Shown here piece after piece: positions 1 through 60,231 of a stretch of DNA of 64,000 nt. The stretch's first letter is position 1, and every line of letters begins with the position of its first letter. This DNA is from Narcine bancroftii (Eukaryota). Location: NCBI RefSeq assembly GCF_036971445.1, contig NC_091481.1, positions 69,936,001 to 70,000,000 of the forward strand, read 5' to 3'. The notes under the pieces are model-generated. The model worked only from the letters and a program-made list of their open reading frames with translations. It was not told the DNA's origin and did no database searches. The position numbers and the translations under genes were made by a program.

Positions 1-56
1 GATTGGGTCTACTTGGGTCTCAGCTCAATACAAACAATCCTCCAGCCAACACTCAC

Positions 57-228
57 CGCTTCCTGGAGCCCCCGAACAGCAAGCAGCTAATGGCCTTCTT
101 AATATCTGCACTGCCAAAGATGGAGGGAGCGATGCTCTTCGCAATGACCTCATAGACATTGGGCATGGCCGCCAGATGACGGAACTCTTCTTCGTCTTGT
201 GGTGACATGACTCCAGCCAGGCCATGGC
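57..228 (-). CDS. MCM5: MCM5 coding exon 7 (172 nt), [20 protein letters not shown]...[26 protein letters not shown]; gene continues beyond the left edge
   Basis: cag|/|gtgag boundaries; start of the MCM AAA+ region (IAPSIFG, CLLFGG). The ORF track shows the wrong frame here. Confidence 0.95.
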
Positions 229-16447: not shown

Positions 16448-17669
16448 TCAAAGGCAGCAGTCTGTATTGAAATTGTTGCAAGTTTTACAAATATTTATAC
16501 ACAAAGCATCAAAAATAGAAAATTGTTTACAACTTTTAGTTACAAGTGGTTACAAGGAAAACAGTACTTCATGGAGCCATTGGGGGGAGTGTAAAGAGAA
16601 AGATTCACAGTGGAAACATTCAAGGGCGGAATTCCATAGTTTATGGCCTATGCAGCTGAAGGCCTGGTAGAACACAGAAGTGGGGATCCAAATCTCAATT
16701 GAACTTCAACCTTTAAACCAACAACATTTAGAACATCACAGAAACAGGCCCTTCTGATCTTCAAGTCTGTGCAGAACTATTATTCTGCCTCATTCCACTG
16801 ACCCGCACCCAATCCATAAGCCTCCATACCCCTCCCATCCACGTGCCTCCAAATTTTTCTTGTTTGTTGAAATTGAGCCTGAATTCACCACTTCATCTGG
16901 CAGCTTATTCCACAGCCCCACAAGTCCAGTTTCTCCTAGTTTCCCATTTCTCATTGTCTGATGTAAAGAAACAGGACACTGGATATTCCCCCAGGAAGCT
17001 GCCGATGCACTTTTTTTTTTATATTTACACTGACTTTTTCAGTAAGATTATTTTCAGATACTGAGCAAGGCAGGTTAATGCAATTTGGGTGCAGATCATT
17101 TCTGCTCTAATTGAAATGTGGAAGCACCTCAAGGAGTTGACTGGCTGCCTCCTGTTCTTGTATTTTCTTCCCTGAGTTTTTATTCCAGTACCTTCTACCT
17201 GAAACAGTCCTGAAACAGGACAATATGCCTGGTCCTCCAGAACAATGATCTGGAGCAGTTTCTGTACTGGGTTCTTTCACACAGGCTGGAGCTCCCACTT
17301 TTCAACTGATCCTTTCAAGAGCTCCCAGAGCACTTGAAAGCCACCGAAAATCTCAACAACCAGACGGTCTATTTTAAATGTGATTGGCTCAGAATTAAAT
17401 ACTTGCTGGGTCCACTTTATTGTCACTTTTTACAATGTGCTGAGGAGATCCTTTGTCCAAAAGACAACATCTCTATCAGTACAACACTGTACTGTAACGT
17501 CAGCCTCGATCATGTGATCTAGTCGCTGCTGTAAGATTTGAACCTAAACCCACCTGACTATGAGGCAAGAATTCTACTCAGAGCTGCAGCTAACATGATA
17601 CAATTCAGTTAGTGCTGCAGGAGATGAGGTCTGTTCAGTTTGAAACCCTGTGCTTTATGTTCAGCAGGC

Positions 17670-17809
17670 TCATAATAGATACCATCCAATACCAAGGGAC
17701 ATAGCCACTAAGCCAAGAAGGACAGTGAGTCGCAGGCCTGGACTGTCTGTCAGTGAATCACATGGTTGTAATGGCAATTCCCAAGTACTTCCTGTGTGCA
17801 TTGATTGTC
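17670..17809 (-). CDS. HMOX1: HMOX1 terminal exon, GQSMHTG...PGLRLTVLLGLVAMSLGIGWYLL*: C-terminal ER tail anchor
   Basis: ttcacag| acceptor in phase 1; hydrophobic tail typical of HO anchors; TGA at 17672-17670. Confidence 0.9.
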
Positions 17810-17983
17810 CTGTGAAGTAAATAGATTACAGTCATTAGTTGATTGGAATCAGCTAACAGTTTAAGTGTACTTGTATGTTATATAGAAGTTCTAAGCATCC
17901 TTTTTACTTTTAGAGGCAATTGTATTCCTTTTGTTAGTGAATCCTTTTTGCAGAGGGGTAGAGGTGCAAATAATCTTAGTTAA

Positions 17984-18394
17984 TAGGTCCTTTCAAACTG
18001 CTGTGTAAAATGGGGTTAACCCTAACCCTAGTTACACGGCAGTTAGAAAGGGTCTGACCCTGTCAACCCTGTCAGAATCCAACCGGGTCCCTGACCTACC
18101 TCAGAGGTAGTCAGGGAAACCAGTTAAACTTACCTAGGTCATGCCCACAGGTGATTTGAAAATGAAAGTAGCAGACCCATTTATTCTGGTGATGTCAGGA
18201 CTTGTGTGAGTGACCAGGCAGCCAGCATCCAAACATTCAGCAGTACTTCCGAGAGTACATGACGTGTCATTATGGGGCAGGGTTCCCCTATTAAATTGCC
18301 AGGCAATTTAAAAAGTGCTTCCAGCACCTTTGCCCCAGTAATCACAGCTGGGTTGCAGGAGGGCTACCCAGGTGCTGCAATTTAAAAGAGGCTA
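17984..18394. mobile_element. MITE-like element, possibly PIF/Harbinger, in the last HMOX1 intron
   Basis: Imperfect TIRs TAGGTCCTTTCAAACTGC / GCAATTTAAAAGAGGCTA and an internal palindrome. Confidence 0.45.
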
Positions 18395-18484
18395 ACCCAC
18401 TTGACCAGAGCATCAGTTACTCGCTAACAATTACCCCCTCTCAGTCTTCGTCACCCAGTCATGATCCCATCGAATTTCCCTTAC

Positions 18485-18575
18485 CCTGAACAATGTTACG
18501 TTTCCGGATCTTGCTCTGGTGCACAAAGCCATTTCTCTCGGACCCGGAGCTCAGTCTCTGGAGTTCATTGAAGAC
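18485..18575 (-). CDS. HMOX1: HMOX1 exon 4b (91 nt), VFNELQRLSSGSERNGFVHQSKIRKRNIVQ, phase-1 donor
   Basis: ttgcag|/G|gtaag boundaries; basic IRKR patch at the position of HO-1 LRQR. Confidence 0.9.
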
Positions 18576-19289
18576 CTGCAATGAGAAGAGGTTTTTTTTT
18601 CCCATTCCAAAAGGATTTGTAGCAACTGACTTAAGGTGTGGAAGACCAAGTTTCTCAATCATTGCAATACCATAATGCAGAAAGACTCAAAGAGCCATAT
18701 GCCCAGAGTAGGGGCATCATAAAGTGAGTGGGGAGAGAGGAACCTGCTGGGTAACTTTTTATTTCACACAGAGGGTGGTCAGTGTAACAAGCTGCCAGAG
18801 GAGGTGATGGAGTCAGGTACTATTGCAATGTTTAAGAAACATCTGGGCAGATACATGGATAGAATGGATTTAGAGGGATATGGGCCAAACACAGGCAGGA
18901 GAGTCTGGAATCTTGACCATACCTTGATGAAGGGCTCAGTGTAAAACATTGTTTACATGGCTTTGCCACCTATGGAGACTGGAGGATGTGCTGAGTTTCT
19001 CCAGCACTTTTGTGTATTAACTAGAATCCTCAATGTCTCCATTCTAATCAACAATGAAAAGTTAGTCTGAAAATTAAATAAACTGCAGACACTGGAAAGC
19101 TGAATCAAAAAGGAAAAAATTCTGACAAAGGGCCACAGACACTTACGGAATAACAATTGTTGATCAGATTCAAGATTTTTAATTTAGACACAGCATGTTA
19201 ACAGGTCTTTCCAGCTCATGGCCAATTAACCTATGACCCCGTGAGCAGATTAATCCAAAGATCAAACGAACTCCATTCTGTATAACCAT

Positions 19290-19790
19290 ATACAGCACAG
19301 AACAGGCCAGTTTGGCCCTACTAGTCCATGCCAGAACAAATCCCCACCCTCCTAGTCCCACTGACCAGCACCTGGTCCATACCCCTCCAATCCTCTCCCC
19401 TCCATGTAATTATCCAGTCTTTCCTTCAATGTAAATAACATCCCTGCTTCAACCACCTCTGCTGGAAGTTTATTTCACATCCCAACCACCCTTTGCATGA
19501 AGAAATTTTCCCTCAATTTTCCCCCTGCAATCTCAAACCATGGCCTCTGGTTTGAATATCCCCCACTCTTAATTAAAAAAGCCTATCCACATTGACTCTG
19601 TCCCTTTTAAAATCTTGAACACCTTCATCAAATCCCCCCTCAATCTTCTACGCTCCAGAGAAAAAAGCCCCAGGCTGCTCAACCTTTCTCTGTCACTCAA
19701 ACCCTGACATCCTTTCAACATTCTCGTGAACCTTCTCTGCACTCTCTTGATTTTGTTTATCACCTTCCTCTCGTTTGGTGACCCAAACTG
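19290..19790 (-). mobile_element. CR1 LINE 3' fragment
   Basis: Translation RVQRRFTRML...LGLFSLERRRLRGDL. Confidence 0.85.
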
Positions 19791-19838
19791 CTAAAGCTGA
19801 GGAAACATCAAAAACAAATATAGACAAGTTTTAATAAT

Positions 19839-19983
19839 CAGGTAGTCCCCAAATTATGACCTGTATACAGTACTTTTAATACAAAATATGTACTCGCACA
19901 GCAGTTTTAAAGATTTTTTTAAAAATTCAATTGTATGTGCAAGTGGATGCAACTTGCATAGATCAAAAGTTAAGGACTACCTG
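19839..19983. mobile_element. Tigger/pogo-like MITE, present in intron 3b but absent from the homologous intron 3a
   Basis: Perfect 10-bp TIR CAGGTAGTCC / GGACTACCTG. Confidence 0.7.
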
Positions 19984-20015
19984 TCCTGCAAACTAAATGA
20001 GAACCATTCCCTTAC

Positions 20016-20507
20016 TTCCACGTTGAGCTGAAAAGCCCTGTTCGCCTCTTCCAGGATTCTCTGCTGTATCTCCCCGTTGGTTTCCAGTGTGTTCATGCGT
20101 GCACGGTACAGCTGCTTGAACTTATTTGCGCTGGTGATCCGGTCAAAGGTGAAGAACGCAACCCCTTCACCAGTGCTTGGCAGCTGCAATGCTTTCTGGG
20201 CTACCTTCTTCAGCACCTGGCCTCCTGACAGGTCACCCAGATACCTGATGTAGGCATGAGCAACCAGCAGCTCTGGTTCCTTACGCCCCACGTGCTGGAT
20301 CCGTGACACGTACAACTCAGTAGCCTTCGGACAAGTGATGTGGTTCTTCCATTCTGGCCCATGGAAGTATTCCAGGTCACGCTCCAAGGCTTCCTTCCGG
20401 TTCAGCTCGGAGGGAAAGTGGACAGGGGCAAAGGCTGGGTGGTCTTTGTTCCGCTCAATCTCCTCTTCCAGGGCAGTGTAGATGAAGTAGAGAGAGTTGA
20501 GTAACAG
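20016..20507 (-). CDS. HMOX1: HMOX1 exon 3b (492 nt), core of catalytic domain B
   Basis: tag|/|gtaag boundaries; intact HO signature; about 92% amino-acid identity to exon 3a. Confidence 0.97.
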
Positions 20508-21528
20508 CTAGAGTAGGGAAGAGAAGCAAGAGGTTGGTGAATGAGGCCTTGCACACTGTTGGGGAACATTCTCATCAGAAAGGGATGAGGGTGGATTGTG
20601 CAAGAGGATTCAGACAGAGGGCAAAATTAAATCAATAATAATGGAGAGGTCACAGGGACAAGGTAGGAAAGGGAAAGAGCAAGCCCATTCTCCAAAAAAA
20701 AACTGAAAAAGCACTACATTGTCCCAGTGGCCATCTTTCAATCTGTATTCAGTCAGATAGAATTCAAATATTCAGTGGGACTATTCAAGGAAGATTAGCA
20801 GAGTTTCCCATATTTGTCCCTCCACCAACATCACTGGACAGAAAATTCAGATATTTCCTCTGTTTTGGGTCGTGCTGTTGTCAAATTGGCCACTTCGTTT
20901 CCCATGTTGCAAGGGTGACTGCATTTGAAAGGGGTTACAGGGGTGAGAGGTGGATTTTCTAAATGGAGAGGAGTTCTTTTTGCCTTGTAGGGACTAAAGT
21001 GGGGGGGGGAAGCAAGAGGACATTGAACAGAGGGCAGCAAAAATGGCATAGCTTGGTGAGTTTTCTAACAAGTTTGAAGATGCTCTAAGGCAGAGAGAGG
21101 ACACTGATGTCCTGAATAAATGAGAGCTAGATGTCTGACTAATATTGAGGGAGTCCTGGTTGGAGGAGCAGTACCTGCTGTGCCAGAGCAAAGTATTAAA
21201 AAAACGCTGTACAAGGGGAAAGCAGCTAGAATGGCGACTTCCCAAGGACATTCTTCAACTCTGACGCTGTCTCCCTCCCCAAGTTTATCAAGCCATACAG
21301 ACCAGGAGAGACCCTGTTTAACTCCTGGTCAGAGCCACTTGCCCTCAACTTTCCCCATACTGAGGTGAGAAAGACAGCTGACCTCTCCACCCCCAATTTG
21401 CTAGGTTCAGAAAGAAAGGTGTGGGGGGGAACGACAGTGGGAAAGAGAATGGAAAGGCCAAATAAAAGAATGTGAATCAACAATTACATTTTAATTTTCA
21501 ATTAAGTGAACCATTCCTGTGTTTATAC

Positions 21529-21649
21529 CTTAAATTGATCCCACGTGATCTGGCCCTTCTGAAAGTTCTTCATGAATTCGGAGTTTTCGGCCAATTCATG
21601 GGCCTCCCTAGTGGCCACCTTCAGAGCTTCTGAGAGGTCATTGGGCATG
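21529..21649 (-). CDS. HMOX1: HMOX1 exon 2b (121 nt), [41 protein letters not shown], with the second proximal His
   Basis: tttag|/|gtataa boundaries; paralogous to exon 2a; phase-2 entry. Confidence 0.95.
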
Positions 21650-23239
21650 CTAAAGGCAGAGGTCAGAGGGAAGGGTTAGATGGGACTAATCTCAATATCA
21701 GTGCAATCCCCAGTGCTGTATTCAAGCAGATTCATCTCCATTAAAAACATAGCTACTACTACAATACACAAATGTGCTGGAGAAACTCAGAAGGATCCAT
21801 AGAAAGAAAAGGGTAACCAACATTCTGGGCCTGGGCCCTTCGTCAGGTTGCAAGCAAAAATAGGCAGATGCCTCAGTAAAAAAGCTGGAATTGGGGCAGA
21901 GGGTGGGAAATGGGAGAGGAAGAAGAAAGGGACAGGGGAGGAGCACAGGCGAATAGGCAAAAGGTCATGGGTAGAGCCAGCAAGATTCCTTCCAGCCTAT
22001 GCTTCTGTTTGAGTCTTGACATAAAGAGCAGGTTTTTCTATCATGAAAGACATTATGCAGTGTTTGCAAGCCTGGAAGGGCAATCTGGTATATCCTGGAG
22101 TAATGTAAATTAATTCCCTCTGCCTATCCCAAATGAAATTATTGCAGGCTATTGAAAATTTCCATATTGCCCTATCCCATATTCCTGTGGTTCAGCCACC
22201 TGTTACTCAACCACCTCATCACCAGGAGGTGTTGGTAATGTGCCTACTTTAACCCTGAATGGTGACCAGGGTGAATGAGGAATGGGTTGCTGGTGCAGCA
22301 GATGCCAGCAATCCAATTCAGGGCCATGTTCAACAAATGTTCCCTGTTTCTTCCCCCCTTCCCCCACCCCCCAGACAGCAGAGCTAGGGGAGCATTTCTT
22401 GCCAGATCTCTTTCTGGACACCTACGAGGTACTAATTTTAAGGCTGGTGTCGAAAAGGCCTCTCCTTGCCCTTCTCCACTCAACTCATGTATTTCCTTAG
22501 CTCAGTAGGTTTGCCAATCAATGTCAGACTCCAATGTTTTACCGGTCCTAGGTGTTGCAAAGGCTGGGCCTGGCCCCGTGACTACACAATGTCCCAGTCA
22601 GCTGAACTGTCACACCACCTATCCTTCATGGAAACATTTTTCTACACAAAAACCTTTGCCTACAAAGCCATCAGGCAGTGGACAACATTGGAATGTCCTG
22701 TTATCCAAGACGACCCATCCTGGGACCATCATATTGATGTAATCATGAAGAAGGAACACCAGTGGCTAGATTTTGTTGAGTTTGAGGAGATTTGGTACGT
22801 CACTAGAAACTGTTGCAAATTTCTACAGGTGTACCCAGGAGAGCATTCTAACTGGTTGCATCAGTGACTGATAGAGATGCCAATGCATAGGACAGGAAAA
22901 GGATACAGAGGTTTCTAAACTTAGCCTCATCTTGGGCATCAGTCTTCACTCCACAAGGACATCTTTAAGAGGTGGTACCACAAGAAAGTAGCCTCTATCC
23001 TCAAGGACCCTCATCACCCAGGCCATGCCTTCTCACTGCTACCATCAGGAAGGTTATAGGAGCTCAAAAACATTGAGTATTACAAATACAGCATCTCTCT
23101 TTCTGCCATCAGATTTCTGAATAGACACCACTTTTTTTTGCACTAGAATTTAGCATCTTGTTCTGCAAAATACCACTGCAACAAAACCACAAATTTCATG
23201 ACACACGTTCACGGCAATAAACCAGATTCTGATTCTAGA

Positions 23240-23955
23240 ACGCCTCATCGCCAGTGCTTACAAACAAGCAGTAGGACTTGGCCTGGCTGGCAGGGAGAAG
23301 AACCCTCCTGAACAACCAGAACATCAACCCCCCCCTCAACACATTGTTCCTAGAATGTCTGGAGTGGAGGCTGTAGCCCACCTTTGCAAAATGTAAATTG
23401 GCTAAGAGTGTGTGGAGGATGCAAGGGTCCTGGTCACAGTTCATCCCCACCAGCATGACAGAGGACCGAGTTACAGGCTGCTCCCAGGGACACATCCAGT
23501 GTCAGACATCTAGAACTCTGGAAGACCAGCAAATCAGTGAAAGATGCCCATAATTTGTTGGTCTTCCAGCACATGGAGATGTTGGTGAGGGAATCCCACT
23601 GACTGGCACATTCCAGACAGCAGGACTACATGCCAAGGGACACACTGATGCTTGGCACAACCAATGCAAGAGCGCTGTTGTGGGAGGGGTGGGGTGGGGG
23701 AGAAAGAAGGACCACAATATAGAGTCCTTCCATTACCAGGCATTGAGGGGCTGAGACTGAGGGGGAAGTACCTCCAACATCAGAGGACAGAATAACAACA
23801 AAGTAGAACAGTGGCAGTATTGGTGTTAATAGAAATGAATGTAAAAAATGCACAGTGATGGAAATTTATGGATTGAAATTAAAGGTGGGAAAAGGCTATG
23901 AACAGTTTTCCTTTTGCAAATAATTTATTGTGAAAAAAGTCCATTTTTGATTTAA
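23240..23955 (+). mobile_element. Degenerate Tx1/L1-clade LINE 3' fragment in the inter-domain intron
   Basis: Degenerate ORF2 C-terminal motifs (VAHL, SVKDA, NLLVFQ, LQDY..RD) and a decayed 3' tail. Confidence 0.55.
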
Positions 23956-24406
23956 AAGAACTGTCATTGGGAAAAGCTCAAGGAACACCTCAAGGTGGTT
24001 GCATTTACCAGTTGGGTCATTAACCTGTCCACACAATGGTTTGTGTGTATCTCAACTGATAGGCACCGCCTCCCCAAAATCTTGGGAAACCAACAAGAGC
24101 ACAAAAGTCTGCAAAATCTACAGAAATGCTGGAGGAACTCAGCCGCTCTCACAGTATCCATAGGAGATAGATATTGACTCAGGCCCAAAGTGTCAGTAAT
24201 ATATCTTTACTCCTACAGATGCAGTAAGACCTCCAGAGTTCCCCCAGCATTTCTGTATATTTTTAAAACCAACAGTTTACTCCCATTTACACATTGAAGT
24301 AGCAACTGTGGCACTGCGTCATTAGTGGCGAGGTAGAGGGACTTTTACTTTGCTGCTCAATGCCATGTTGTGACTGAAAGTTCACACCCTGATGCTGAAT
24401 TCCTAC

Positions 24407-24471
24407 CTGCCATTCATGATGTTACTGTTCTTCTGGTCCTTTGCTCCCAGCTGCAACAGTTCCTCAAAGAC
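24407..24471 (-). CDS. HMOX1: HMOX1 exon 4a (65 nt), VFEELLQLGAKDQKNSNIMNG: end of domain A plus inter-domain linker, phase-2 donor
   Basis: ccactgcag| acceptor; VFEEL is homologous to the start of HO-1 exon 4. Donor CAG|GTAGGA; read-through meets TAG immediately. Confidence 0.85.
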
Positions 24472-24712
24472 CTGCAGTGGAAATAAGTTGAAGCAATTGG
24501 AGGACAAGACTATGAGATTGAGCAAGTCTCAGAGGAGGCCTGACTAGGACAGCTTTGGGGTGACAGGGCCAGGACTAGGGCAGTCCTAGAGCAAAAGTAA
24601 GCAGATTTATGTAAAGGTCAAATGAACCCCACTCTACAGCTGAGAAAGCATCAAAAACAAAATACAGACAAGTTTTAATAACACAATAATCTAAATGAGA
24701 CCATTCACTTAC

Positions 24713-25204
24713 GTCCACATTCAGCTGAAAAGCCCCGTTCGCCTCTTCCAGGATTCTCTCCTGGGTCTGTCCATTGGTTTCTAGAGTGTTCATGCGTGCG
24801 CGGTATAGCTGCTTGAATTTGTTCGCGCTGGTGATCCGGTCAAAGGTGAAGAATGCAACCCCTTCGCCAGTGCTTGGCAGCTGCAACGCTTTCTGGGCCA
24901 CCTTCTTCAGCGTCTGGCCGCCTGACAGGTCACCCAGATACCTGATGTAGGCGTGAGCAACCAGCAACTCAGGCTCCTTGCGCCCCACATGCTGGATCCG
25001 TGATACATATGTCCCAGTGGCCTTTGGACACTCAATGTGGCTCTTCCATTCTGGCCCATGGAAGTATTCCAGGTCCTGCTCCAAGGCTTCCTTACGGTTC
25101 AGCTCGGAGGGAAAGTGGATAGGGGCGAAGGCCGGGTGGTCTTTGTTCCGCTCAATCTCCTCTTCCAGGGCAGTGTAGATGAAGTAGAGAGAGTCAAGTA
25201 ACAG
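24713..25204 (-). CDS. HMOX1: HMOX1 exon 3a (492 nt), core of catalytic domain A
   Basis: cag|/|gtaag boundaries; heme oxygenase signature [17 protein letters not shown]; [10 protein letters not shown]. Confidence 0.97.
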
Positions 25205-25951
25205 CTGGAGTAGGAGGGAAGCAGAAGTCAGTGAACAAGGCCTGGCACACTGTTGGGGAACATCCTCATGAGGATGGAATGAGGCATGAGGGTGGAATGT
25301 GCACAGATTCAGGGCAGAGGGTAATGGTATGGAGTGCAATGTTAAAGCAGACAGATCTTTTAGTGGTCCTGGAGTAGTTTACAATTGGGTAGTATGGGGA
25401 GGTTCAAGAACCTGGAAGCTTTAGGGGTTAAAAAAAATGGACAGTCCCAGTATTGAGATTGGGAGCTCATTCTTTGGCTATATTTCACATTGTCCTGCAC
25501 AGTACACTGAGATGATATGGAAATTAGAACATAAATCACTCTTCATCACGGGGGTCAGCAGTGGGAAGGGTCAAGAACTTAAAATTCTTGGGCATCAGCA
25601 TCTCTGAAGATCTGTCCTGGGGCCTCTTCCTCACGAAGAAGACTCATCAGCAGCTAAACTTCATGTTGAGTTTGAGAAGATTTGGTATGTCAAAGACTCT
25701 TGCAAATTTCCTCAGGTGTACTGTGGAGAGCATTCAGACTGGTTACATCACTCTTTAGTTTGGAGGTACCAACGCACAGGACAGGAAAAAGACTACAGAG
25801 AGCTGAAAACTCAGCAATGGACATCAGTATTCATTTCATCGAGGACATCTACAAGAGGTGGCGTCTTAAGAAAGCAGCCTCTATCCTCAAGGATCCTCCA
25901 CCACCCAGGCCATACCCTCTTCACTTAGCTACCATCAGGAAGGAGGTACAT

Positions 25952-26117
25952 AATGGACAAGAGGGGGGAGGTAGGGAGGGTGGGATGGGAGGAGGGTGGG
26001 ATGGGAGGAGGGAGGGTGGGTGAGAAAATGGCACTGTATATATTTGAAAGGAAAAAGTATGTATCATGGTTAATGTGGTTTATGGTGTGAAAAATAAAAA
26101 ATTAAATTAAAAAAAAA
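25952..26117 (+). mobile_element. L1 3' UTR tail inserted in a Rex1/Babar copy
   Basis: Same G-rich 3' UTR and poly(A) as 63490-63620; flanked by duplicated AGGAAGGAG. Confidence 0.8.
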
Positions 26118-26127
26118 GGAAGGAGAT

Positions 26128-26473
26128 TGTTAGGTCTGCTTTGTTCATGAATGAGTGAGACAAACACCAGGCTGAGTCGAAATCAGGGTTCTTTGTTCTT
26201 TATTACCGGATTGTAACACTTGCGACTAACCATGTTAGTCGGAGAATGCATTCTGCCGTTATCAGCAAAATGGTGATTTTTTATACCCTTGGATATGTGC
26301 TTAGAACATCATCATCTCATTACTTGTCCAATGACTAAAACTGTTGCTATCCTTTCCCTGCTAGCTTCCTGCCTCTCAATCCATCAATGTCTCTCTTATC
26401 TTGTAAGTACAAGGATGCATTCACATCTTGTTACAGCCCTGTACATTCCCATCTCATGATGTTTTACCTAACA
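26128..26473. mobile_element. Solo LTR (second family)
   Basis: Inverted termini TGTTAGGT...ACCTAACA; 4-bp TSD AGAT/AGGT with one mismatch. Confidence 0.7.
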
Positions 26474-26864
26474 AGGTACAGGGGCCTGTAGACGAACAGC
26501 CAAGAGTAGAAAAACAGCTTTTTCCCTTCTGATCAAACAATGAACCACAGACACTACCTAGTTTTTTTTTGCACTAATGTTTAAAATATAATTTAGAGCA
26601 ATATTCGCACCTCTAATGCTGCCATGAAACAATTAATTTCATGAAATGTTAATGGCAATAAATTCAAGATTCTGCATACGAAGTCTAAAAGTAATAATAC
26701 ACTGATCAGGGAACTGTCCACACTTGGTTTTTTACTGACCTGGTGTCTGTATTCTACAGAATAATTTGGAGGATTGGTTGCAATGCTTAATCACACAATA
26801 ATAGTTATTAATTAATAAAAATTGAATTTGATGGAACTTAATTCCTTTACTGCCTGCTTAACTA

Positions 26865-27280
26865 CAGGGCTGCGTGGTTAGCATAGCAGTTCTTCTTTCT
26901 TTGGCTTGGCGGACGAAGATTTATGGAGGGGTACGTCCACGTCTGCTGCAGGCTCGTTGGTGGCTGACAAGTCCGATGCAGGTCAGGTAGGCACAGTTGC
27001 AGCGGTTGCAAGGGAAAATTGGTGGGTTGGGGTTGGGTTTTTCCTCCTTTGTCTTTTGTCAGTTAACAGAACGCTATTACAGCGCCAGTGACCTGGGTTT
27101 GAATCCAGCGCTGTCTGTAAAGAATTTGTACATTTTCCCCATGTCTGCATGGGTTTCCTCCAGGTGCTCTGGTTTCCTCCCACCCTTCAAAACATTTGGG
27201 GGGTGGCTAAAGGTTAATTGGGGATTTAGGCAGCAAGGACTCATGGTCCAGAAGAGGCTGTTACAGTGCTGTGTCTAAAA
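26865..27280 (+). mobile_element. V-SINE-like tRNA-derived SINE interrupted by an RTE 3' end (26893-27062, minus strand)
   Basis: Box-B-like GGTTTGAATCC and V-domain TCCCCATGTCTGCATGGGTTTCCTCCAGGTGCTCTGGTTTCCTCCCAC. Related copies at ~5490-5890, 8080-8285, 42670-42860 and 54395-54800. Confidence 0.7.
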
Positions 27281-27889
27281 TCTAGAAACTACATCAGTGG
27301 CAATGTGAGGCACACAGATGCAATTAAAATGTCTCATCATTTGGTGATACAGAACTGGATGAGTTAACAGAGCACAAGAATCAGATGGATTCCCACCTCT
27401 GCAGCTATCAAACTTGTAGATTCAGGCAATAAACCCAAGATAAAAATATTTAGTATCAGTGATCTTGAAGAGGTTTGTTTGGCAGAATTAATACATCAGG
27501 GTCCTAAATACCCTTCACAGAAGGAAATTACTACCTCTACCCTCTGACCTGAAATGTGACTCTGGACTCCCACTGTGATCTCACCACTTCCTGAAACAGC
27601 TCAACAATCAAGTCAAGAGATCAGGGATATACTGCCTTCGATTTCTGAGCATAGTTAAACAATTGTCTGGTCCACAGCAAACTAAATATTGAACAGTGCT
27701 CTCCAGGTTATTAACAGCCCATTTGTAGTCACCCCAACATAAATGAGTGTTTGGGAGACCAGAGGAAAGGATTTGCTGGTTGCCATGGAGCTGCCTGCAC
27801 TTTCTGTAAGGTGGAAACAGGACGTCTTTTCATTCCTGCCCCTCCTCCACCCACCTTGCACCCAAACTGCAATCATCTGGGGCTGGGGT

Positions 27890-27945
27890 GAGCCAATCAG
27901 GGCTGGGAAACACAGAGCAGACACATCCTGAGTCACTGAGTCACT
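27890..27945. promoter_or_regulatory. Tandem AP-1 sites (TGAGTCA x2) plus a CCAAT box in HMOX1 intron 2a
   Basis: CCAAT at 27893-27897; TGAGTCA at 27929-27935 and 27937-27943. Confidence 0.45.
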
Positions 27946-28239
27946 CTTCCCTCTCAAGTTATAGCTGTGTCTGTGAAACTATCACACACTGCTCTCTCAT
28001 TTCCTTTATCAGTAGTTTTCAGGAATGAAAACTTGTAACCAGTTTCAAATGATTGGAGTGCTCCACAATCAAGTGGACAAAGTTGATAAGAGTTGTCTGG
28101 CCTTTAAAAACCACAAAATCTTTAAGCATGACTGAGGTTGCTCATTTTAACAGCTATTACCAGATAGAGGAGTGTTTTGTAGATGCCAGAGTCCAGATTG
28201 GAAATCCTTCATGACCACTATTTTGTACCAAGAAGATGT

Positions 28240-29010
28240 GATCTGCCAGGATGCAGTAGATAGGATAAGACTGGCTAACCTCTCACTCAATGCCACCAAA
28301 ACCAAGGAGCTGATTGTTAACGTCAGGAAGCAAAAACAAGGTGTGCATTGATTATTGGGAGATCAGAGGTGGAGATGGTGAGCAAATTTAAGTTCTTGGG
28401 AGTCACCATCTCAGAAGATCTTTCCTGGACCCAACAAACTAATGGCATTATGAAGGAGGAATGTCAGCACCTCCCTCAGGAGTTTGCAGAGCTTTGGTAT
28501 GACATCAGAAACCCTGGCAAATTTCTACAGATGTGTGGTGGAAAGTGTGTTGAAAGGCAGCATCACAATCTTATGCTGACACCAGTATCTGAACAGAAAG
28601 CAATGCAAAAGGCAGTGGACATAGTCTAGGGCACAGGCAAAACTCTCCCAGTCAAGAATATCCACAGGGAACCCTGCCATCAGAGCAGCAGCAACTATCA
28701 AGGATCCACACCACCCAGCTCATGCTCTGTTGTCACTGCTACCATCAGGAACAAGGTATAGGGGCCACAAGACTCACACCACCAGGTTCATGAACATCTG
28801 CTACCCCTCCACCATCAGACTCTTCAACAACAAACTCAATCAGGGACTCATTTAAGGTTGTGCACTTTGTTTCTTTTCCTTTCAGTTTACATGTGAACAT
28901 TGTTTTTTTTTGCACCACCAATAAGTGGTAATTCTGCTCCACCTGCAGGAAAAAGAATCTCAGGGTTGTATGTGATGTCATGTATGTACTTTGATAATAA
29001 ATCAGAAATC
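28240..29010 (+). mobile_element. Rex1/Babar LINE 3' fragment, representative of about 15 copies (e.g. ~4980-5470, 14400-15730, 22700-23235, 25540-26670, 33190-33630, 35090-35390, 36120-36445, 39285-39620, 44330-44727, 53368-53860, 54920-55770)
   Basis: Recurring degenerate peptide FKFLGV.ISEDLSW...YRCTVESILTGCI...AASI.KD..HPGH.LF.LLPSG.RY; short tandem (TCTGAT)-type tails. Confidence 0.75.
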
Positions 29011-30311
29011 AAATCCATCCATAGATGTTGGCTTTTAGACAAGATAGAAAAATGTAGTCTTGTCTGAAGTGGGGGGGTGGGAAGAATGTGATAATAAATT
29101 TTATTAATAAGGGTTTCTCCATGGAATCCATGGCTATATTGAGAAAGCAGACTATTGGGTCATTTAGTGCTGTGAGTGAGATCTTGCTGTGCACACATTT
29201 GTCTGGTATAATGGTGAGCACCTTTCAAATCTCATTTAATTGGCTGTAAATCAGATTATGAAAGATGTGATACAAAAGCTAATCTTTCCTCATTTTATAC
29301 CTTTGAGGAGTAGGGTTGTGACCCGATTTCTGTCCCCAATGTCTTATCCATCTTACACCAACTCTTCCCCAACTACCAACTCTCGAGAATAACTTATTTT
29401 TTTGCAAGCACCCAAGTCACTTAATCTGGTACACTGCATGATGGCAGGAGGGTTGGTAACTGATGGATACAGACTTGCTAATTAGTAAATAAGAATTTTT
29501 ATTTCAGGTACACACTGAAGAACATTAATGAGTGATAAATATTTAAAGAAGAAACATTTATATGGTTAGGACAATTAATCTAACTGAGGGGCTTTCTTGC
29601 AGCTATCATTGACGTGAAGGGCCAAATGGACTGCTTCAGCATTTGGAGATCCCAAGATTTTGGATATGGAACACGTTTAATTCTGGATGCATGAGATTAT
29701 GTTGAGACCATCAACTCCCATGAAAGATGCCCTTTGGTGCCCCAAAACCTGTTGATCTTTCAGCACATAGGTCAGTGAGGGAAGGCTGATGACTACATTC
29801 CAGATCACAAGAGTACATGCTTGGCTCAGACAACAAGGGGACTGTGGGGAAGGACCGAAGTCCAGAGAACTTCCATTACTGGGCAGTAAGTGGTTGAGAC
29901 CAACCGGAAGCCCCTCAAACAGGGAGTGGGCATAGCAACAAGGTGCTGCAGTGGTGCAAATAGAAAGTGTATGTAACGGATGAGAATGTATGGATATGAC
30001 ATTAAGGGAACAAATAAACCAAATGGCTTTTTGCAAGTTTATTGTGAATAGAGCCTTTTATTTTAAAAAAAACAGAATTTATCATCATGAACAGTCTCAA
30101 AATTTGTTTTGTGTTACAGTGCAAATAATGCTACAAATTAAATTTAAAAATAAGTTAGTGCAAAAAAGGTACTGTCTGTGGTTCATTGTCCATTCATAAA
30201 TCTGATGGCAGTAGAGGAAAAGATAAAGAGATTCTCAGGAAAAATTCCATCTCACTTGAACCTTGTGATCTGGTGCATTTTGTTGCCAGATTGTCAAAGT
30301 TAGATACTTAC

Positions 30312-30432
30312 TGTAAACTGGTCTCGTGTGACCCGACCCTTCTGGAAGTTTCTCATAAACTCTGAGTTTTCAGCTAGTTCGTGTGACTCCTTCGTGGCCA
30401 GTTTCAGAGCCTCTGACAAGTCCACAGGCATG
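30312..30432 (-). CDS. HMOX1: HMOX1 exon 2a (121 nt), [41 protein letters not shown], with the proximal His
   Basis: tag|/|gtaag boundaries; DLSEALK..TKE.H..AEN motif with the His25-equivalent. Confidence 0.95.
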
Positions 30433-31129
30433 CTAGGACAAAATGGTTAATTACATCAGTAAAGAATCCACAGGGAGGGACCCTTAATGAACACTTCCCT
30501 AGCCATGACAGGATGAGCTAACAAGGTAAGCAGTCAGTAGGGGAGGTATGTGGGTGTTTGCAGTCAAGAATGCAATGCCTCTGAAATCCTGACAGAGGAA
30601 GATTAGATTTTCTAGATTAATCTCAAAACAGGAGGTTATAATAACTTTAAAAATTGCACAATAAAAAAATGCAGAGTCAAAAAGCTACATAGTTTAAAAA
30701 TGGGCCCTTCAGACATTCATTCATCTATGCTGACCAAGTTGACTATCTGAGCTGCTCCATTATGCCTGAATTTGGGCATTACCCCACTAATCCTCTTATC
30801 AATGTACTTGTCCAAATGTCTTTCAGATGTTGTAATTATACCCACCTCTACCACTTCCTCTGAAAGCTTGTTCCATATACATCTTGATGTTCATATCTGA
30901 ACAGTATTACCATTGTTTGAAAAAACCTGAGCAAACTACAAGCTTGTCACTGAGCAAAGCCATAACCACTGCAGAGGAGGCTGTCCATTCAAATAGTAGT
31001 TGCCTGAACCAGAGTGTGAAGGTATCACTCCCATTCTGTTCCTGCCTCCTGTCCACTTTGACTAAAATGGTAAATAGGGCTCCAAGCTCATTCAAACTCC
31101 CAGCTTGTAACCTGCTCTAGTTCTTCCAC

Positions 31130-32560
31130 GCACACCCCTCCCCCCCACACCTGTTCTAATCCCCAGTCCACCTGCCCCACTCTAATCCCTGGTTTCCCCC
31201 TGTTGTAATCCCCAATTCTCTCCTCCCCTCCATTCTAAACACCAGGCCACCCAGTAACCTTATTTCGCCTCCCCCCCCCACCCCAACCATTACTTCTCTT
31301 TCCCTCCCACTCTAATCTTCATTTTCCCACCCCCTCCACTCTAACCACAAGTCCACCACCAGTTCCCCCTTTCGCACAACCAGTAAACTGCAGTAACTCC
31401 CCCTTCTCTAACCCCTTCATTACCTCCCCCCACACACTACCCACTGGTTACCCCTCTACTACAAACCTTGGTTCTTCCACTCCCTGTCTCTCACCCCTCT
31501 CCACTCTAATCCCATTCTCTCCCCCTCACCACTCAGGATTCCCTCCAGACCACCAACAGTTCTTATCCCCAGTTCCTCCCATCTGCTGCAATCCCAGTTC
31601 TCTCAATCCCAGGTCCTCCCCTTCTGTTCTAACCCCCCCCCCCTCTGCCCACAACAACCCCAGTTTCATCCACCCCCACTCTATTCCCCAATTCTCCCCT
31701 TTTCTAACCCCTGGTCCACCAGTTCCTTGCCTTCCCCCCTCCATTTTAATCCAGTTCTCTCCCACCCCACTCTAATCCCAGGTATATTCCCCTGTTCTAA
31801 TCCCAGTGTCTGCTCTACTTTATTCCCATTTCTCCCCCCCCCCAACTAATTCCCATTTCTCTTCCTATTCTAATCCCAGGTCTCCCATGTTCTAACCTCC
31901 CAGTCTACCCACCCCACTCTAACCCTCAGGTCCGTCCCCCCCATCCTAATCACCACACCTCCCCATGCTCTAAACCCCTGTCCCTCACCCAATCTCAAAT
32001 TCCAGGTCCCACACCCACCATTCTAACCTGTCTGCAGACCTCACTCTAACCCCTCATTACCCACTCCAAACCCTAGTTCTTCTCTGCTCCAAACTGCATT
32101 GGTTCTAACTCTTTGTTCTTCCCAGCCCCAATCTCTTTTTCCCCCTCCCTGCTCAAAGCCCCATTACCCCAGTTTCCCCCACTGCCTCAAATCCTGGTCC
32201 CCCACTGCCTCAAATCCTGGTCTCCCCCCCCCCCCCCCCAAGCTTCATGGCTCCTTGCTATAACCTGCCATTTCTTCCCCCAACCCCCCGGAAACCCTGG
32301 TTCCCCTCTGCCTTAACCCTCCCCACCCCCCTGCAATAACTCTGGGCATCCCACCACCTGCTTATAACCCTAGGGTTCTTTCTCTCGCCTCGCTCCCCTC
32401 CCCCCTAACCCAGGGATCTCTTCCCCAACCTGCTCTAACTCATCCCTCAACTAATCTTTTACTCCTCATTCCCCCCCACAGCTCTAAACCTCCCAACAGA
32501 TAATACTAGTTCTCACTCGCTGTTCCTCCCCCCCCTCCCGCCCGCTCTAATCCCAGTTTT
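31130..32560. repeat. C-rich degenerate minisatellite (CTCTAATCCC / CTCTAACCCC motifs) in HMOX1 intron 1
   Basis: Dozens of tctaatccc/taaccc motifs with C runs; G-rich on the transcribed sense strand. Confidence 0.75.
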
Positions 32561-32611
32561 CACTCCTTACATTCTCAAATTTCTGATGCTTTTGCCTTTT
32601 TTTTCCCCTAC

Positions 32612-32649
32612 CTTTTACTGTCCAAGGGCTTCTCTGCTGAGGATATCAT
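32612..32649 (-). CDS. HMOX1: Heme oxygenase 1 exon 1 (38 coding nt), MISSAEKPLDSK, phase-2 donor
   Basis: ATG at 32649; donor AAG|GTAGGG; phase matches exon 2; TATA-like element about 80 nt upstream. This N-terminus is poorly conserved, so the call is less certain than for the other exons. Confidence 0.75.
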
Positions 32650-48449: not shown

Positions 48450-48565
48450 AAACAATGACTCAGCACTAAGGCAAACTTGAAGGTTAGTCAGCAGTTTCCT
48501 GTTGACATGATTTCATGCTGTTGTGACTCAGCAAAACCTGATTAGCTACCATTGACTCAGCAGAG
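48450..48565. promoter_or_regulatory. Cluster of ARE/MARE (NRF2-sMAF/BACH1) sites, candidate HMOX1 distal enhancer
   Basis: TGACTCAGCA at 48456, 48524 and 48553, plus the variant TTAGTCAGCA at 48484, within about 110 bp of non-repeat sequence. Confidence 0.85.
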
Positions 48566-49422: not shown

Positions 49423-51720
49423 TCTTTTTTGGCTTGGTTTCGCGGACGAAGATTTATGGAGGGGGTAAAAGTCCACGACAGCTGCAGGCTCGATTGTGGC
49501 TGACAAGTCCGATGCGGGACAGGCAGACACGGTTGCAGCGGTTGCAGGGGAAAATTGGTTGGTTGGGGTTGGGTGTTGGGTTTTTCCTCCTTTGTCTTTT
49601 GTCAGTGAGGTGGGCTCTGCGGTCTTCTTCAAGGGAGGTTGCTGCCCGCCGAACTGTGAGGCGCCAAGATGCACGGTTTGAGGTGATATCAGCCCACTGG
49701 CGGTGGTCAACGTGGCAGGCACCAAGAGATTTCTTTAGGCAGTCCTTGTACCTCTTCTTTGGTGCACCTCTGTCACGGTGGCCAGTGGAGAGCTCGCCAT
49801 ATAACACGATCTTGGGAAGGCGATGGTCCTCCATTCTGGAGACGTGACCCACCCAGCACAGCTGGATCTTCAATAGCGTGGACTCGATGCTGTCGGCCTC
49901 TGCCATCTCGAGTACTTCGATGTTAGGGATGAAGTCGCTCCAATGAATTTTGAGGATGGAGCGGAGACAACGCTGGTGGAAGCGTTCTAGGAGCCGTAGG
50001 TGATGCCGGTAGAGGACCCATGATTCAGAGCCGAACAGGAGTGTGGGTATGACAACGGCTCTGTATACGCTAATCTTTGTGAGGTTTTTCAGTTGGTCGT
50101 TTTTCCAGACTCTTTTGTGTAGTCTTCCAAAGGCGATATTTGCCTTGGAGAGTCTGTTGTCTATCTTGTTGTCGATCCTTGCATCTGACGAAATGGTGCA
50201 GCCGAGATAGGTAACCTGGTTGACCGTTTTGAGTTTTGTGTGCCCGATGGAGATGTGGGGGGGCTGGTAGTCATGGTGGGGAGCTGGCTGATGGAGGACC
50301 TCCGTTTTCTTCAGGCTGACTTCCAGGCCAAACATTTTGGCAGTTTCCGCAAAACAGGACGTCAAGCGCTGAAGAGCTGGCTCTGAATGGGCAACTAAAG
50401 CGGCATCGTCTGCAAAGAGTAGTTCACGGACAAGTTGCTCTTGTGTCTTGGTGTGAGCTTGCAGGCACCTCAGATTGAAGAGACTGCCATCCATGCGGTA
50501 CCGGATGTAAACAGCGTCTTCATTGTTGTGGTCTTTCATGGCTTGGTTCAGCATCATGCTGAAGACTACCATACTGCAATCCACTGAAGAGGTACTGGGC
50601 TTCTCCTCCAGGAAAAACAAGGACTGGTTCGACGATAACAGCCAGGAAATCCAGGAGCTGCTGGCAAAGAAGCGAGCTGCCCACCAGGCTCACCTTACAA
50701 AGCCGTCCTGTCCAGAGAAGAAACAAGCCTTCCGTCGCGCATGCAGCCATGTTCAGCGCAAACTCCTGGAGATCCAAAATGAGTGGTGGACTAACCTCAC
50801 TAAGTGAACCCAGCTCAGCGCGGACATTGGCGACTTCAGGGGTTTCTACGAGGCTCTAAAGGCTGTGTACGGCCCCTCACCCCAAGTCCAAAGCCTGCTG
50901 CGCAGCTCAGACGGCAAAGTCCTCCTTAGCGACAAGATCTCCATCCTCAACCGATGGTCAGAACACTTCCAATCTCTTTTCAGTGCCAACCGCTCAGTCC
51001 AAGATTCCGCCCTGCTCCAGCTCCCTCAACAGCCCCTAAGGCTAGAGCTGGATGAGGTCCTCACCCAGGATGAGACATATAAGGCAATTGAACAACTGAA
51101 AAGTGGCAAAGCAGCAGGTATGGATGGAATCCCCCCAGAGATCTGGAAGGCTGGCGGCAAAACTCTGCATGTCAAACTGCATGAGTTTTTCAAGCTTTGT
51201 TGGGACCAAGGAAAACTGCCTCAGGACCTTCGTGATGCCATCATCATCACCCTGTACAAAAACAAAGGCGAGAAATCAGACTGCTCAAACTACAGGGGAA
51301 TCATGCTGCTCTCCATTGCAGGCAAAATCTTCGCTAGGATTCTCCTAAATAGAATAATTCCTAGTGTCGCCGAGAATATTCTCCCAGAATCACAGTGTGG
51401 CTTTCGCGCAAACAGAGGAACTACTGACATGGTCTTTGCCCTCAGACAGCTCCAAGAAAAGTGCAGAGAACAAAACAAAGGACTCTACATCACCTTTGTT
51501 GACCTCACCAAAGCCTTCGACACCGTGAGCAGGAAAGGGCTTTGGCAAATACTAGAGCGCATCGGATGCCCCCCAAAGTTCCTCAACATGGTTATCCAGC
51601 TGCACGAAAACTAACAAGGTCGGGTCAGATACAGCAATGAGCTCTCTGAACCCTTCTCCATTAACAATGGCGTGAAGCAAGGCTGTGTTCTCGCACCAAC
51701 CCTCTTTTCAATCTTCTTCA
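49423..51720 (-). mobile_element. RTE LINE with an inverted 5' half (3' part on minus, 49423-~50565; 5' part on plus, ~50560-51720)
   Basis: Shared flanking TSD CAAAACAAT; the two halves are contiguous in element coordinates. Confidence 0.88.
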
Positions 51721-59203: not shown

Positions 59204-60192
59204 TTTTTTTTTTGTTTTTTTTTTTAATTTTTCATTTTTCACACCATAAATCACAATAGCCATGATATACACTTTTTCTTTTCCACACATTTACAGTGAC
59301 TTTTTCTCCCTCCCCCCTCCCTCCTCCCAAGCCACCCCCCCACCCCCCCCCTCTCATCCATTTTAGGTATACAATCTAGGTTGCATTAATTCAGTTAGAC
59401 AATGTTGTCATTCAACAGAAATACACCAGAAATTCTACTGAGTCCATTCTTTTCTTTTCTTCTCCTTCCATCAACTTAGGTAATGTTTGTTCCCGGTAGG
59501 TTTTCGCTATTGTATTTAATGTAAGGCTCCCATACTTGTTCGAATATTTCAATATTATTTCTTAAACTATATGTTATTTTTTCTAATGGAATACATTTAT
59601 TCATTTCTATATACCATTGTTGTATTTTCAAATTATCTTCCAATTTCCAGGTTGACATAATACATTTTTTTGCTACGGCTAGGGCTATCTTGACAAATCT
59701 TTTTTGTGCATCTTCCAAGTCAATTCCAAATTCTTTATTTTTTATGTTACTTAGGAGAAAGATCTCTGGATTCTTTGGTATATTGTTTTCTGTTATTTTA
59801 TTTAATATCTGATTGAGATCATCCCAAAATTTTTCTACTCTCTCACATGTCCAGATTGCATGAATTGTTGTTCCCCTTTCTTTTTTACATCGAAAACATC
59901 TATCAGATACTGTTGGGTCCCATTTATTTAACTTTTGCGGTGTAATGTTTAGTCTGTGTAACCAATTATATTGTATCATACGCAGCCTCGTATTTATTGT
60001 ATTTCTCATCGTTCCAGAGCATAACTTCTCCCATGTTTCCTTTTTTATCTTTATATTTAAATCTTGTTCCCATTTTTGTTTAGTTTTACCATTTGTTTCC
60101 TCATTCTCCTTTTCTTGCAGTTTAATATACATATTTTTTATAAATCTTTTGATTAACATTGTATCTGTAATCACATATTCAAGGTTACTTCC
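59204..60192 (-). mobile_element. Young 5'-truncated L1 inserted into a CR1 3' fragment
   Basis: 17-bp TSD AGACAGAGGTAGATGTT (59187-59203 and 60193-60209); poly(A); open ORF2 C-terminus. Confidence 0.92.
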
Positions 60193-60231
60193 AGACAGAG
60201 GTAGATGTTCTTGATCAGGAAGGGAATCAAG

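Follow-up and report, generated by a model that had tools for sequence, protein, structure and literature searches.

A tandem two-domain heme oxygenase 1 gene in Narcine bancroftii and multi-domain HO-1 models across sharks and rays

Structure of the HMOX1 locus

The window analyzed here is a 64,000-nt stretch of the Narcine bancroftii genome (RefSeq assembly GCF_036971445.1, contig NC_091481.1, positions 69,936,001 to 70,000,000), and its central feature is HMOX1, the gene for heme oxygenase 1 (HO-1), which lies on the minus strand and carries two complete copies of the catalytic domain in one reading frame. In window coordinates, the gene opens with an ATG at 32649 in exon 1, the coding part of which spans 38 nt (32612..32649), and continues through exon 2a (30312..30432; 121 nt), coding for the proximal helix of the first module (module A) with His30, exon 3a (24713..25204; 492 nt), coding for the module A core with Asp145, Lys154 and Arg190, and exon 4a (24407..24471; 65 nt), coding for the end of the last helix and the inter-domain linker. 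Beyond a middle intron of 2757 nt (21650..24406), the block recurs as exon 2b (21529..21649; 121 nt; proximal helix of module B with His256), exon 3b (20016..20507; 492 nt; module B core with Asp371, Lys380 and Arg416) and exon 4b (18485..18575; 91 nt), which completes module B and begins a flexible stalk. The rest of the stalk and the only transmembrane anchor (approximately residues 497-519) are encoded by exon 5, whose coding part measures 140 nt including the TGA (17670..17809).

The exon order 1-2a-3a-4a-2b-3b-4b-5 adds up to 1560 nt and encodes 519 aa (59.3 kDa). GT-AG ends are present at all seven introns, the joined frame is free of internal stops, and exon 4a, the shorter of the two fourth exons, ends in phase 2, as needed by exon 2b, while exon 4b ends in phase 1. 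All of these values, recomputed from the sequence, came out identical to those in a preliminary description of the locus, and the derived protein agrees letter for letter with the automatic RefSeq model “heme oxygenase 1a” of N. bancroftii (P0004). Translations of all four second and third exons match the Pfam family PF01126 (Heme_oxygenase), scoring 216 bits (exon 3a), 217 bits (exon 3b), 36 bits (exon 2a) and 34 bits (exon 2b) against a cut-off of 23. The domains are spaced by about 15 residues, the linker length proposed earlier, and the protein has a single hydrophobic stretch (residues 501-519; modeled helix 497-518). The stretches containing exon 1 with the promoter and exon 5 each match the 3.3-Gb genome only once, which bears out the earlier claim that both are single. 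A genome-wide search for the heme oxygenase (HO) family yielded six exon matches, four of them at the HMOX1 locus and two at a second, HMOX2-like locus on another contig (C24:4701281-4704760), where one match is to exon 2 and the other to exon 3.

The middle intron had been described as mostly repeats, which could be shown only in part: self-BLAST against the window alone covered 27% of it, and repeat contigs pile up over much of its length. It contains no TATA-like match and one poly(A) hexamer, at 23929, and a Pfam scan covering 35 of the 209 long open frames, including 11 from this intron, returned only three reverse-transcriptase remnants, all upstream of HMOX1. Read-through from exon 4a into the intron (24407-24401) encounters a stop after one codon, with the hexamer located ~480 nt downstream; a soluble one-domain form of 239 aa ending within the intron is possible on this basis.

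Transcript evidence for splicing between the modules

Exon 3b is contained in five runs, four of which (X1, X3, X4 and X5) were compared as contigs with window positions 17200-25400; X1, X3 and X4 come from one study. In each of these three, all five expected joints (3a-4a, 4a-2b, 2b-3b, 3b-4b and 4b-5) were found, with CT..AC ends corresponding to GT-AG on the minus strand. The 3a-4a joint lies at 24469/24711, and the 4a-2b joint (21649/24407), singled out in the preliminary description as the diagnostic one, is present in three of the four runs, with shorter-side overlaps of 65, 63 and 25 letters in X1, X3 and X4, respectively. By matching depth and record positions, a single 464-nt contig from X3 fits 240 nt of exon 3a, exons 4a and 2b, and 40 nt of exon 3b, and the spliced contigs continue past 17200 as 3′ untranslated region. 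Exons 3a and 3b share 37 31-mers, making tangling of contigs possible, but the sequences on either side of the 4a-2b joint each have a single match in the window, and collapse of paralogs therefore cannot create it. These data support one HMOX1 gene giving rise to one message that encodes two complete HO-1 domains and a single anchor. The two independent genes held out earlier as the alternative were rejected in view of the 4a-2b joint and of the single first and anchor exons.

No skipping joint (1-2b, 2a-3b or 3a-4b) was seen among the best 15 of 281 joints, bearing in mind that contigs show presence and not absence. Joint depths were set aside as a measure of expression: in X4 the 4a-2b joint has a depth of 293 versus 25,087 for 3a-4a, yet the obligatory 4b-5 joint reaches just 207. 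We also set aside a joint between 24976 and 20458 (X1 and X3), which probably derives from an HMOX2 transcript, since the HMOX2-like exon matches it at 31/33 and 34/43 bases.

Catalytic residues and predicted fold

Heme oxygenases, supplied by a reductase, break heme down into biliverdin, carbon monoxide and iron. In an alignment with human HO-1, both modules retain the equivalents of His25, Glu29, His132, Arg136, Gly139, Asp140, Ser142 and Gly143, as well as Lys18, Lys149, Lys153, Lys177, Lys179, Arg183, Arg185, Phe207 and Phe214, while the residue at human position 22 differs between the modules (A, Lys; B, Arg). The pairs His30/His256 and Asp145/Asp371, put forward earlier as equivalents of His25 and Asp140, occupy exactly these positions, and the RYLGDLSGG helix and the basic FKQLYR patch are likewise present in both modules. 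Across 35 vertebrate multi-domain proteins, the proximal His, RY[LM]GDLSGG and F[KR]QLYR are intact in all 80 modules, which also keep Lys or Arg at position 149, Lys153 and Arg185. According to PMC7509768, Lys149 and Arg185 contact the reductase in HO-1.

The residue preceding RYLGDLSGG, which is Thr135 in human HO-1, is Ile in both Narcine modules (residues 140 and 366; window 24942-24944 and 20245-20247). Ile occupies this position in 51 of 51 elasmobranch HO-1 modules versus one of the 466 other fetched domains (436 of which have Thr, chimaera included); on these alignments, the distal helix has undergone a lineage-specific change at this site.

AlphaFold models were built for the Narcine protein and a short-linker shark protein (mean pLDDT, the predicted local distance difference test score, 79.5 and 79.1; predicted template-modeling score, pTM, 0.46 and 0.48; linker pLDDT <50). 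The Narcine model consists of two well-folded domains, with low confidence at the linker (230-240) and the stalk (455-496), and its comparison with human HO-1 (root-mean-square deviation of 1.2 Å over 216 columns, with 66% identity over one domain) reveals the all-helical HO fold. Neither model gives a confident mutual orientation of the domains.

Distribution of multi-domain heme oxygenases

Of the 482 proteins fetched, 47 have at least two near-full heme oxygenase domains; exon structure was read in the Narcine genome only, and the layouts in other species are those of protein or gene models. Domain counts in relatives, suggested earlier as a check, yielded multi-domain HO-1 models for 21 species of sharks and rays: there are two domains in 15 of them, three in four (Pristis, Leucoraja, Heptranchias and Cetorhinus), four in one (Carcharodon) and five in one (Stegostoma). 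Multi-domain models are also found in bowfin (two and three domains), in both paralogues of tarpon and eels, and in bonytongues. Among the matches listed, a single domain characterizes chimaera, coelacanth, tetrapods and other teleosts (that is, most teleosts), as well as one moray paralogue, and no single-domain elasmobranch HO-1 is named there, the Scyliorhinus canicula model being frameshifted in its second module. The named matches listed (the best 120 of 563, 1221 and 348) do not include gar, sturgeon, bichir, lungfish or lamprey.

Of the 35 vertebrate multi-domain proteins, 34 have a single hydrophobic stretch, located at the terminus, while in the remaining one no stretch reaches the threshold; none has an internal stretch. 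The linker measures 19-23 residues from the last-helix Phe to DLSE in elasmobranchs, 19 residues in bowfin and 40-51 in teleosts, the linkers of which look related to each other. Two candidates were dropped from the counts, namely Bagarius P0028, in which an internal membrane segment betrays two fused genes, and Ranitomeya P0027, which combines a retroelement part with scrambled exons; partial or frameshifted entries (P0029, P0030, P0123 and P0126) and isoform or cluster duplicates (P0021, P0024, P0329 and P0335) were also left out.

Models of tandem heme oxygenases occur outside vertebrates as well, with four domains in a chiton (P0121/P0340, and also a 5-kb transcript-like contig), three in two Basidiobolus fungi (P0124/P0125) and two in a protist transcript (P0150). 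In the tree, the domains from each of these form their own clade, with modules far more diverged than the vertebrate ones, indicating that the repeats arose independently.

Duplication and homogenization of the modules

A tree of 91 domains places every vertebrate module in the HO-1 clade (support 100/97; HO-2 clade, 100/98), where they mostly pair by species and not by position, and a clade of first modules is rejected (approximately unbiased test, p 9e-6; 29 rows, 12 versus 17). Over the 21 species, the first and last copies of exon 3 are 98.4% identical within species, and fully identical in three of them, versus ~86% across species. The first 14 aa of exon 4 display the opposite pattern: first and last modules share only 39% within species, while across species the identity amounts to 69% between first modules, 70% between last modules and 38% between first and last. 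Clustering by species, combined with a position-specific start of exon 4, suggests one old duplication followed by repeated homogenization through gene conversion.

In Narcine, the modules are 73-90% identical at the DNA level, with synonymous (dS) and non-synonymous (dN) divergence of 0.57 and 0.063, and their ratio of 0.11 is indicative of purifying selection. Synonymous difference drops from 0.87 in exon 2, where the non-synonymous difference is 0.12, to 0.30 in exon 3 (Fisher p 2e-7). The similarity of exon 3 extends into its intron flanks, upstream for ~120 nt (74%) and downstream for 25 nt (88%), against a background of 45%, and the resulting gene-conversion-like tract (24688..25324, minus strand) is 87% identical to positions 19990-20624.

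We infer that a single duplication in the shark-ray ancestor was fixed by the shortened, phase-2 exon 4a, and that gene conversion and unequal crossing-over have since kept the modules alike and altered their number (two to five). For vertebrates as a whole, the simpler reading, given that chimaera, coelacanth and tetrapods are single-domain, is that the multi-domain state was gained at least twice and then lost in most teleosts; alternatively, there may have been one gain with more losses, as conversion erases the signal.

Neighboring genes and upstream elements

Downstream of HMOX1 and on the same strand lies MCM5, which has an exon at 56..196 and runs past the left end of the window; although outside HMOX1 itself, it is a synteny marker, and the two genes are also neighbors in human. 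Judged by its position in the HO-1 clade, its MCM5 neighbor and its single C-terminal anchor, the Narcine gene is an orthologue of HMOX1, albeit a variant and not a canonical member: in place of the one-domain architecture of ~33 kDa it has two domains and 59.3 kDa.

About 15.8 kb upstream of exon 1, three TGCTGAGTCA elements, of the MARE/ARE type (Maf-recognition/antioxidant-response element), are clustered within 107 bases beside a long CA repeat (48456..48562, minus strand). The chance mean in a motif scan of shuffled sequences is 0.39, and none of 100 shuffles reaches three. Nrf2/Bach1 have been linked to such elements (PMC8577501), and the cluster is a likely candidate for a distal stress-response enhancer of HMOX1 of the Nrf2/Bach1 type, which suggests that the gene may be induced by stress in the ordinary way. 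Elsewhere upstream of HMOX1, retroelement remnants of the RVT_1 family are found at 49457-51611 and 60174-61091. Within the gene, the start of intron 1 (30800-32600) contains ~1.5 kb of degenerate purine-/G-rich repeats on the minus strand.

Discussion

The two domains of Narcine HO-1 probably represent independent and equivalent active sites strung on a short flexible linker and serving enzyme dosage. The duplicated block of exons 2-3-4 is spliced into one message that encodes two complete domains on one tail anchor; for each domain we predict heme binding and reduction, in turn, by cytochrome P450 reductase, and the result would be a greater heme-degrading capacity per transcript and per anchor. 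The membrane-distal domain is probably active, and dosage is the probable selected benefit. Mammalian HO consists of a soluble domain and an anchor, ~33 kDa in all, and its truncated soluble form is monomeric and partly active (PMC7509768); self-assembly of HO-1 requires the transmembrane segment (PMC8577501). On this basis, a distal domain can do without a separate anchor, and a dimer of soluble domains is without precedent in those sources. Variable copy number and low inter-domain confidence favor independent beads over a fixed pseudo-dimer or heme hand-off.

Several points weigh against this interpretation. The reductase is often limiting, weakening a pure dosage benefit (PMC7948974). The counts of three to five near-identical modules were taken from gene models, in which they may reflect faulty assembly, and the low pTM values rest on alignments of 22-23 sequences and are compatible with an interface. 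Among the 21 species, Narcine has the modules that differ most from each other (92% identity in exon 3, 78% in exon 2), leaving room for specialization. On the transcript side, the runs with the joint all belong to a single study and were taken as RNA by guess, none being on record as RNA; X5, from another organism, lacks the joints and carries no weight either way; contigs give no isoform shares; the exon 1-2a and 2a-3a splices are those of the RefSeq model alone; and the skips 1-2b, 2a-3b and 3a-4b are all in frame, each leading to an ordinary 293-aa HO-1.

A division of labor, in which the anchor-proximal domain performs most of the catalysis with reductase and the distal one chiefly takes up or buffers heme before handing it over, would draw on the fact that module B alone adjoins the anchor, on the better binding of reductase by anchored full-length than by truncated HO-1 (as stated in the title of a study cited in PMC7509768), and on the differences between the Narcine modules, which affect 8% of the residues in exon 3 and 22% of those in exon 2. 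We consider it unlikely, since exon-3 identity of ~98% within species (100% in three of the 21), combined with variable copy number, leaves little room for sequence-encoded specialization, and the reductase-face residues are kept in all 80 modules, although the domains might still differ by position alone. The preliminary description envisaged a covalent pseudo-dimer, and its core, one chain with two domains and one anchor, is supported, whereas the fixed two-domain unit with buffering or hand-off is not, in view of the two to five modules and the low pTM. A fixed interface that would replace or supplement HO-1 oligomerization, for stability or cooperativity, is in our opinion quite improbable. 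The short elasmobranch linker of conserved length and the oligomerization of intact mammalian HO-1 (PMC7509768, PMC8577501) are consistent with it, but mammalian oligomerization needs the transmembrane segment, the soluble domain being monomeric (same sources), modules also occur in odd numbers of three and five in gene models, teleost linkers measure 40-51 residues, and pTM is low, if from shallow alignments, even for the short-linker shark protein.

It is still harder to credit that the two-domain message is real but near-neutral or minor, with the extra copy preserved by conversion and HO-1 produced mostly as a one-domain protein through exon skipping or linker cleavage, or as the soluble 239-aa form. 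The in-frame skips, the stop one codon into the exon 4a read-through with its poly(A) hexamer, the UniProt entries for Scleropages (287-aa one-domain forms beside 530-536-aa forms) and the single-domain annotation of one eel paralogue (P0135) all point that way; on the other side, the best 15 of 281 joints include no skip, exon 4a is conserved across the 21 species, and exon 2, which is unconverted in Narcine, has accumulated only 0.12 non-synonymous against 0.87 synonymous difference. The possibility that two tandem genes, or mis-assembled pieces, were mistakenly fused into a single model can be regarded as largely refuted and extremely improbable. Such fusions do exist in annotation, as exemplified by Bagarius P0028 with its internal membrane segment, but here the 4a-2b splice is seen directly in three runs, the first exon and the anchor exon are each single in the genome, the modules are just 73-90% identical in DNA, and the same layout recurs in 21 species.

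A broader scenario, which we advance tentatively, is possible but doubtful. Multi-domain HO-1 would be ancient and widespread in jawed fishes, perhaps even the original state of jawed vertebrates, which the lineages leading to model species would then have lost. It would form an accordion-like array of two to five active sites with a common anchor, heme being captured by the distal domains and a single reductase serving both these and the proximal domain. Copy number would tune the flux of heme, carbon monoxide and biliverdin between species, and a mollusc, a fungus and a protist would each have arrived at the same solution independently.

As the preliminary description had surmised, the architecture seems to be undescribed: a search of the open literature, the coverage of which leaves out most subscription journals, found no paper on it. 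It is a real and conserved architectural variant of a well-known enzyme, apparently undescribed in the literature though public as automatic models. Vertebrate heme oxygenases are commonly treated as one domain plus an anchor, while the multi-domain form spans a whole subclass and early-branching bony fishes. It offers a natural test of how far from the membrane the reductase can feed a heme oxygenase domain, of whether HO oligomerization serves dosage or cooperation, and of the way in which gene conversion maintains the likeness of tandem enzyme domains. Where HO-1 is used to monitor stress in sharks, rays and eels, antibodies, primers and annotation should allow for a product of 59 kDa or larger.

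Comparison with known systems

The Narcine gene resembles mammalian HMOX1 (PDB 6EHA, 1N3U and 1NI6) in its fold, the His25 and Asp140 equivalents, the reductase-face residues, the tail anchor, the MCM5 neighbor and the upstream cluster of putative stress-response elements, and differs from it in having two catalytic domains (two to five in relatives) instead of one and the elasmobranch Ile in place of human Thr135. HMOX2 shares the domain family and the tail anchor, but occupies a separate locus in Narcine (on C24) and a separate clade, and inspection of the Narcine HMOX1 tail revealed no Cys-Pro heme-regulatory motif. The automatic RefSeq and UniRef models from sharks, rays, bowfin, eels, tarpon and bonytongues have the same multi-domain chain, although they are named “heme oxygenase 1a” or “uncharacterized protein”, with the repeat unmentioned, and those from chiton, Basidiobolus and the protist likewise place tandem HO domains on one chain, but in their own clades and with far more diverged modules. 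None of the 30 matching PDB sequences contains two HO stretches. The engineered fusions of HO-1 with reductase (PDB 6J79, 6J7A and 6J7I) show that an HO-1 domain tolerates fusion through a linker of 13-17 residues; unlike the natural chain in Narcine, they are artificial, and the fusion partner is the reductase.

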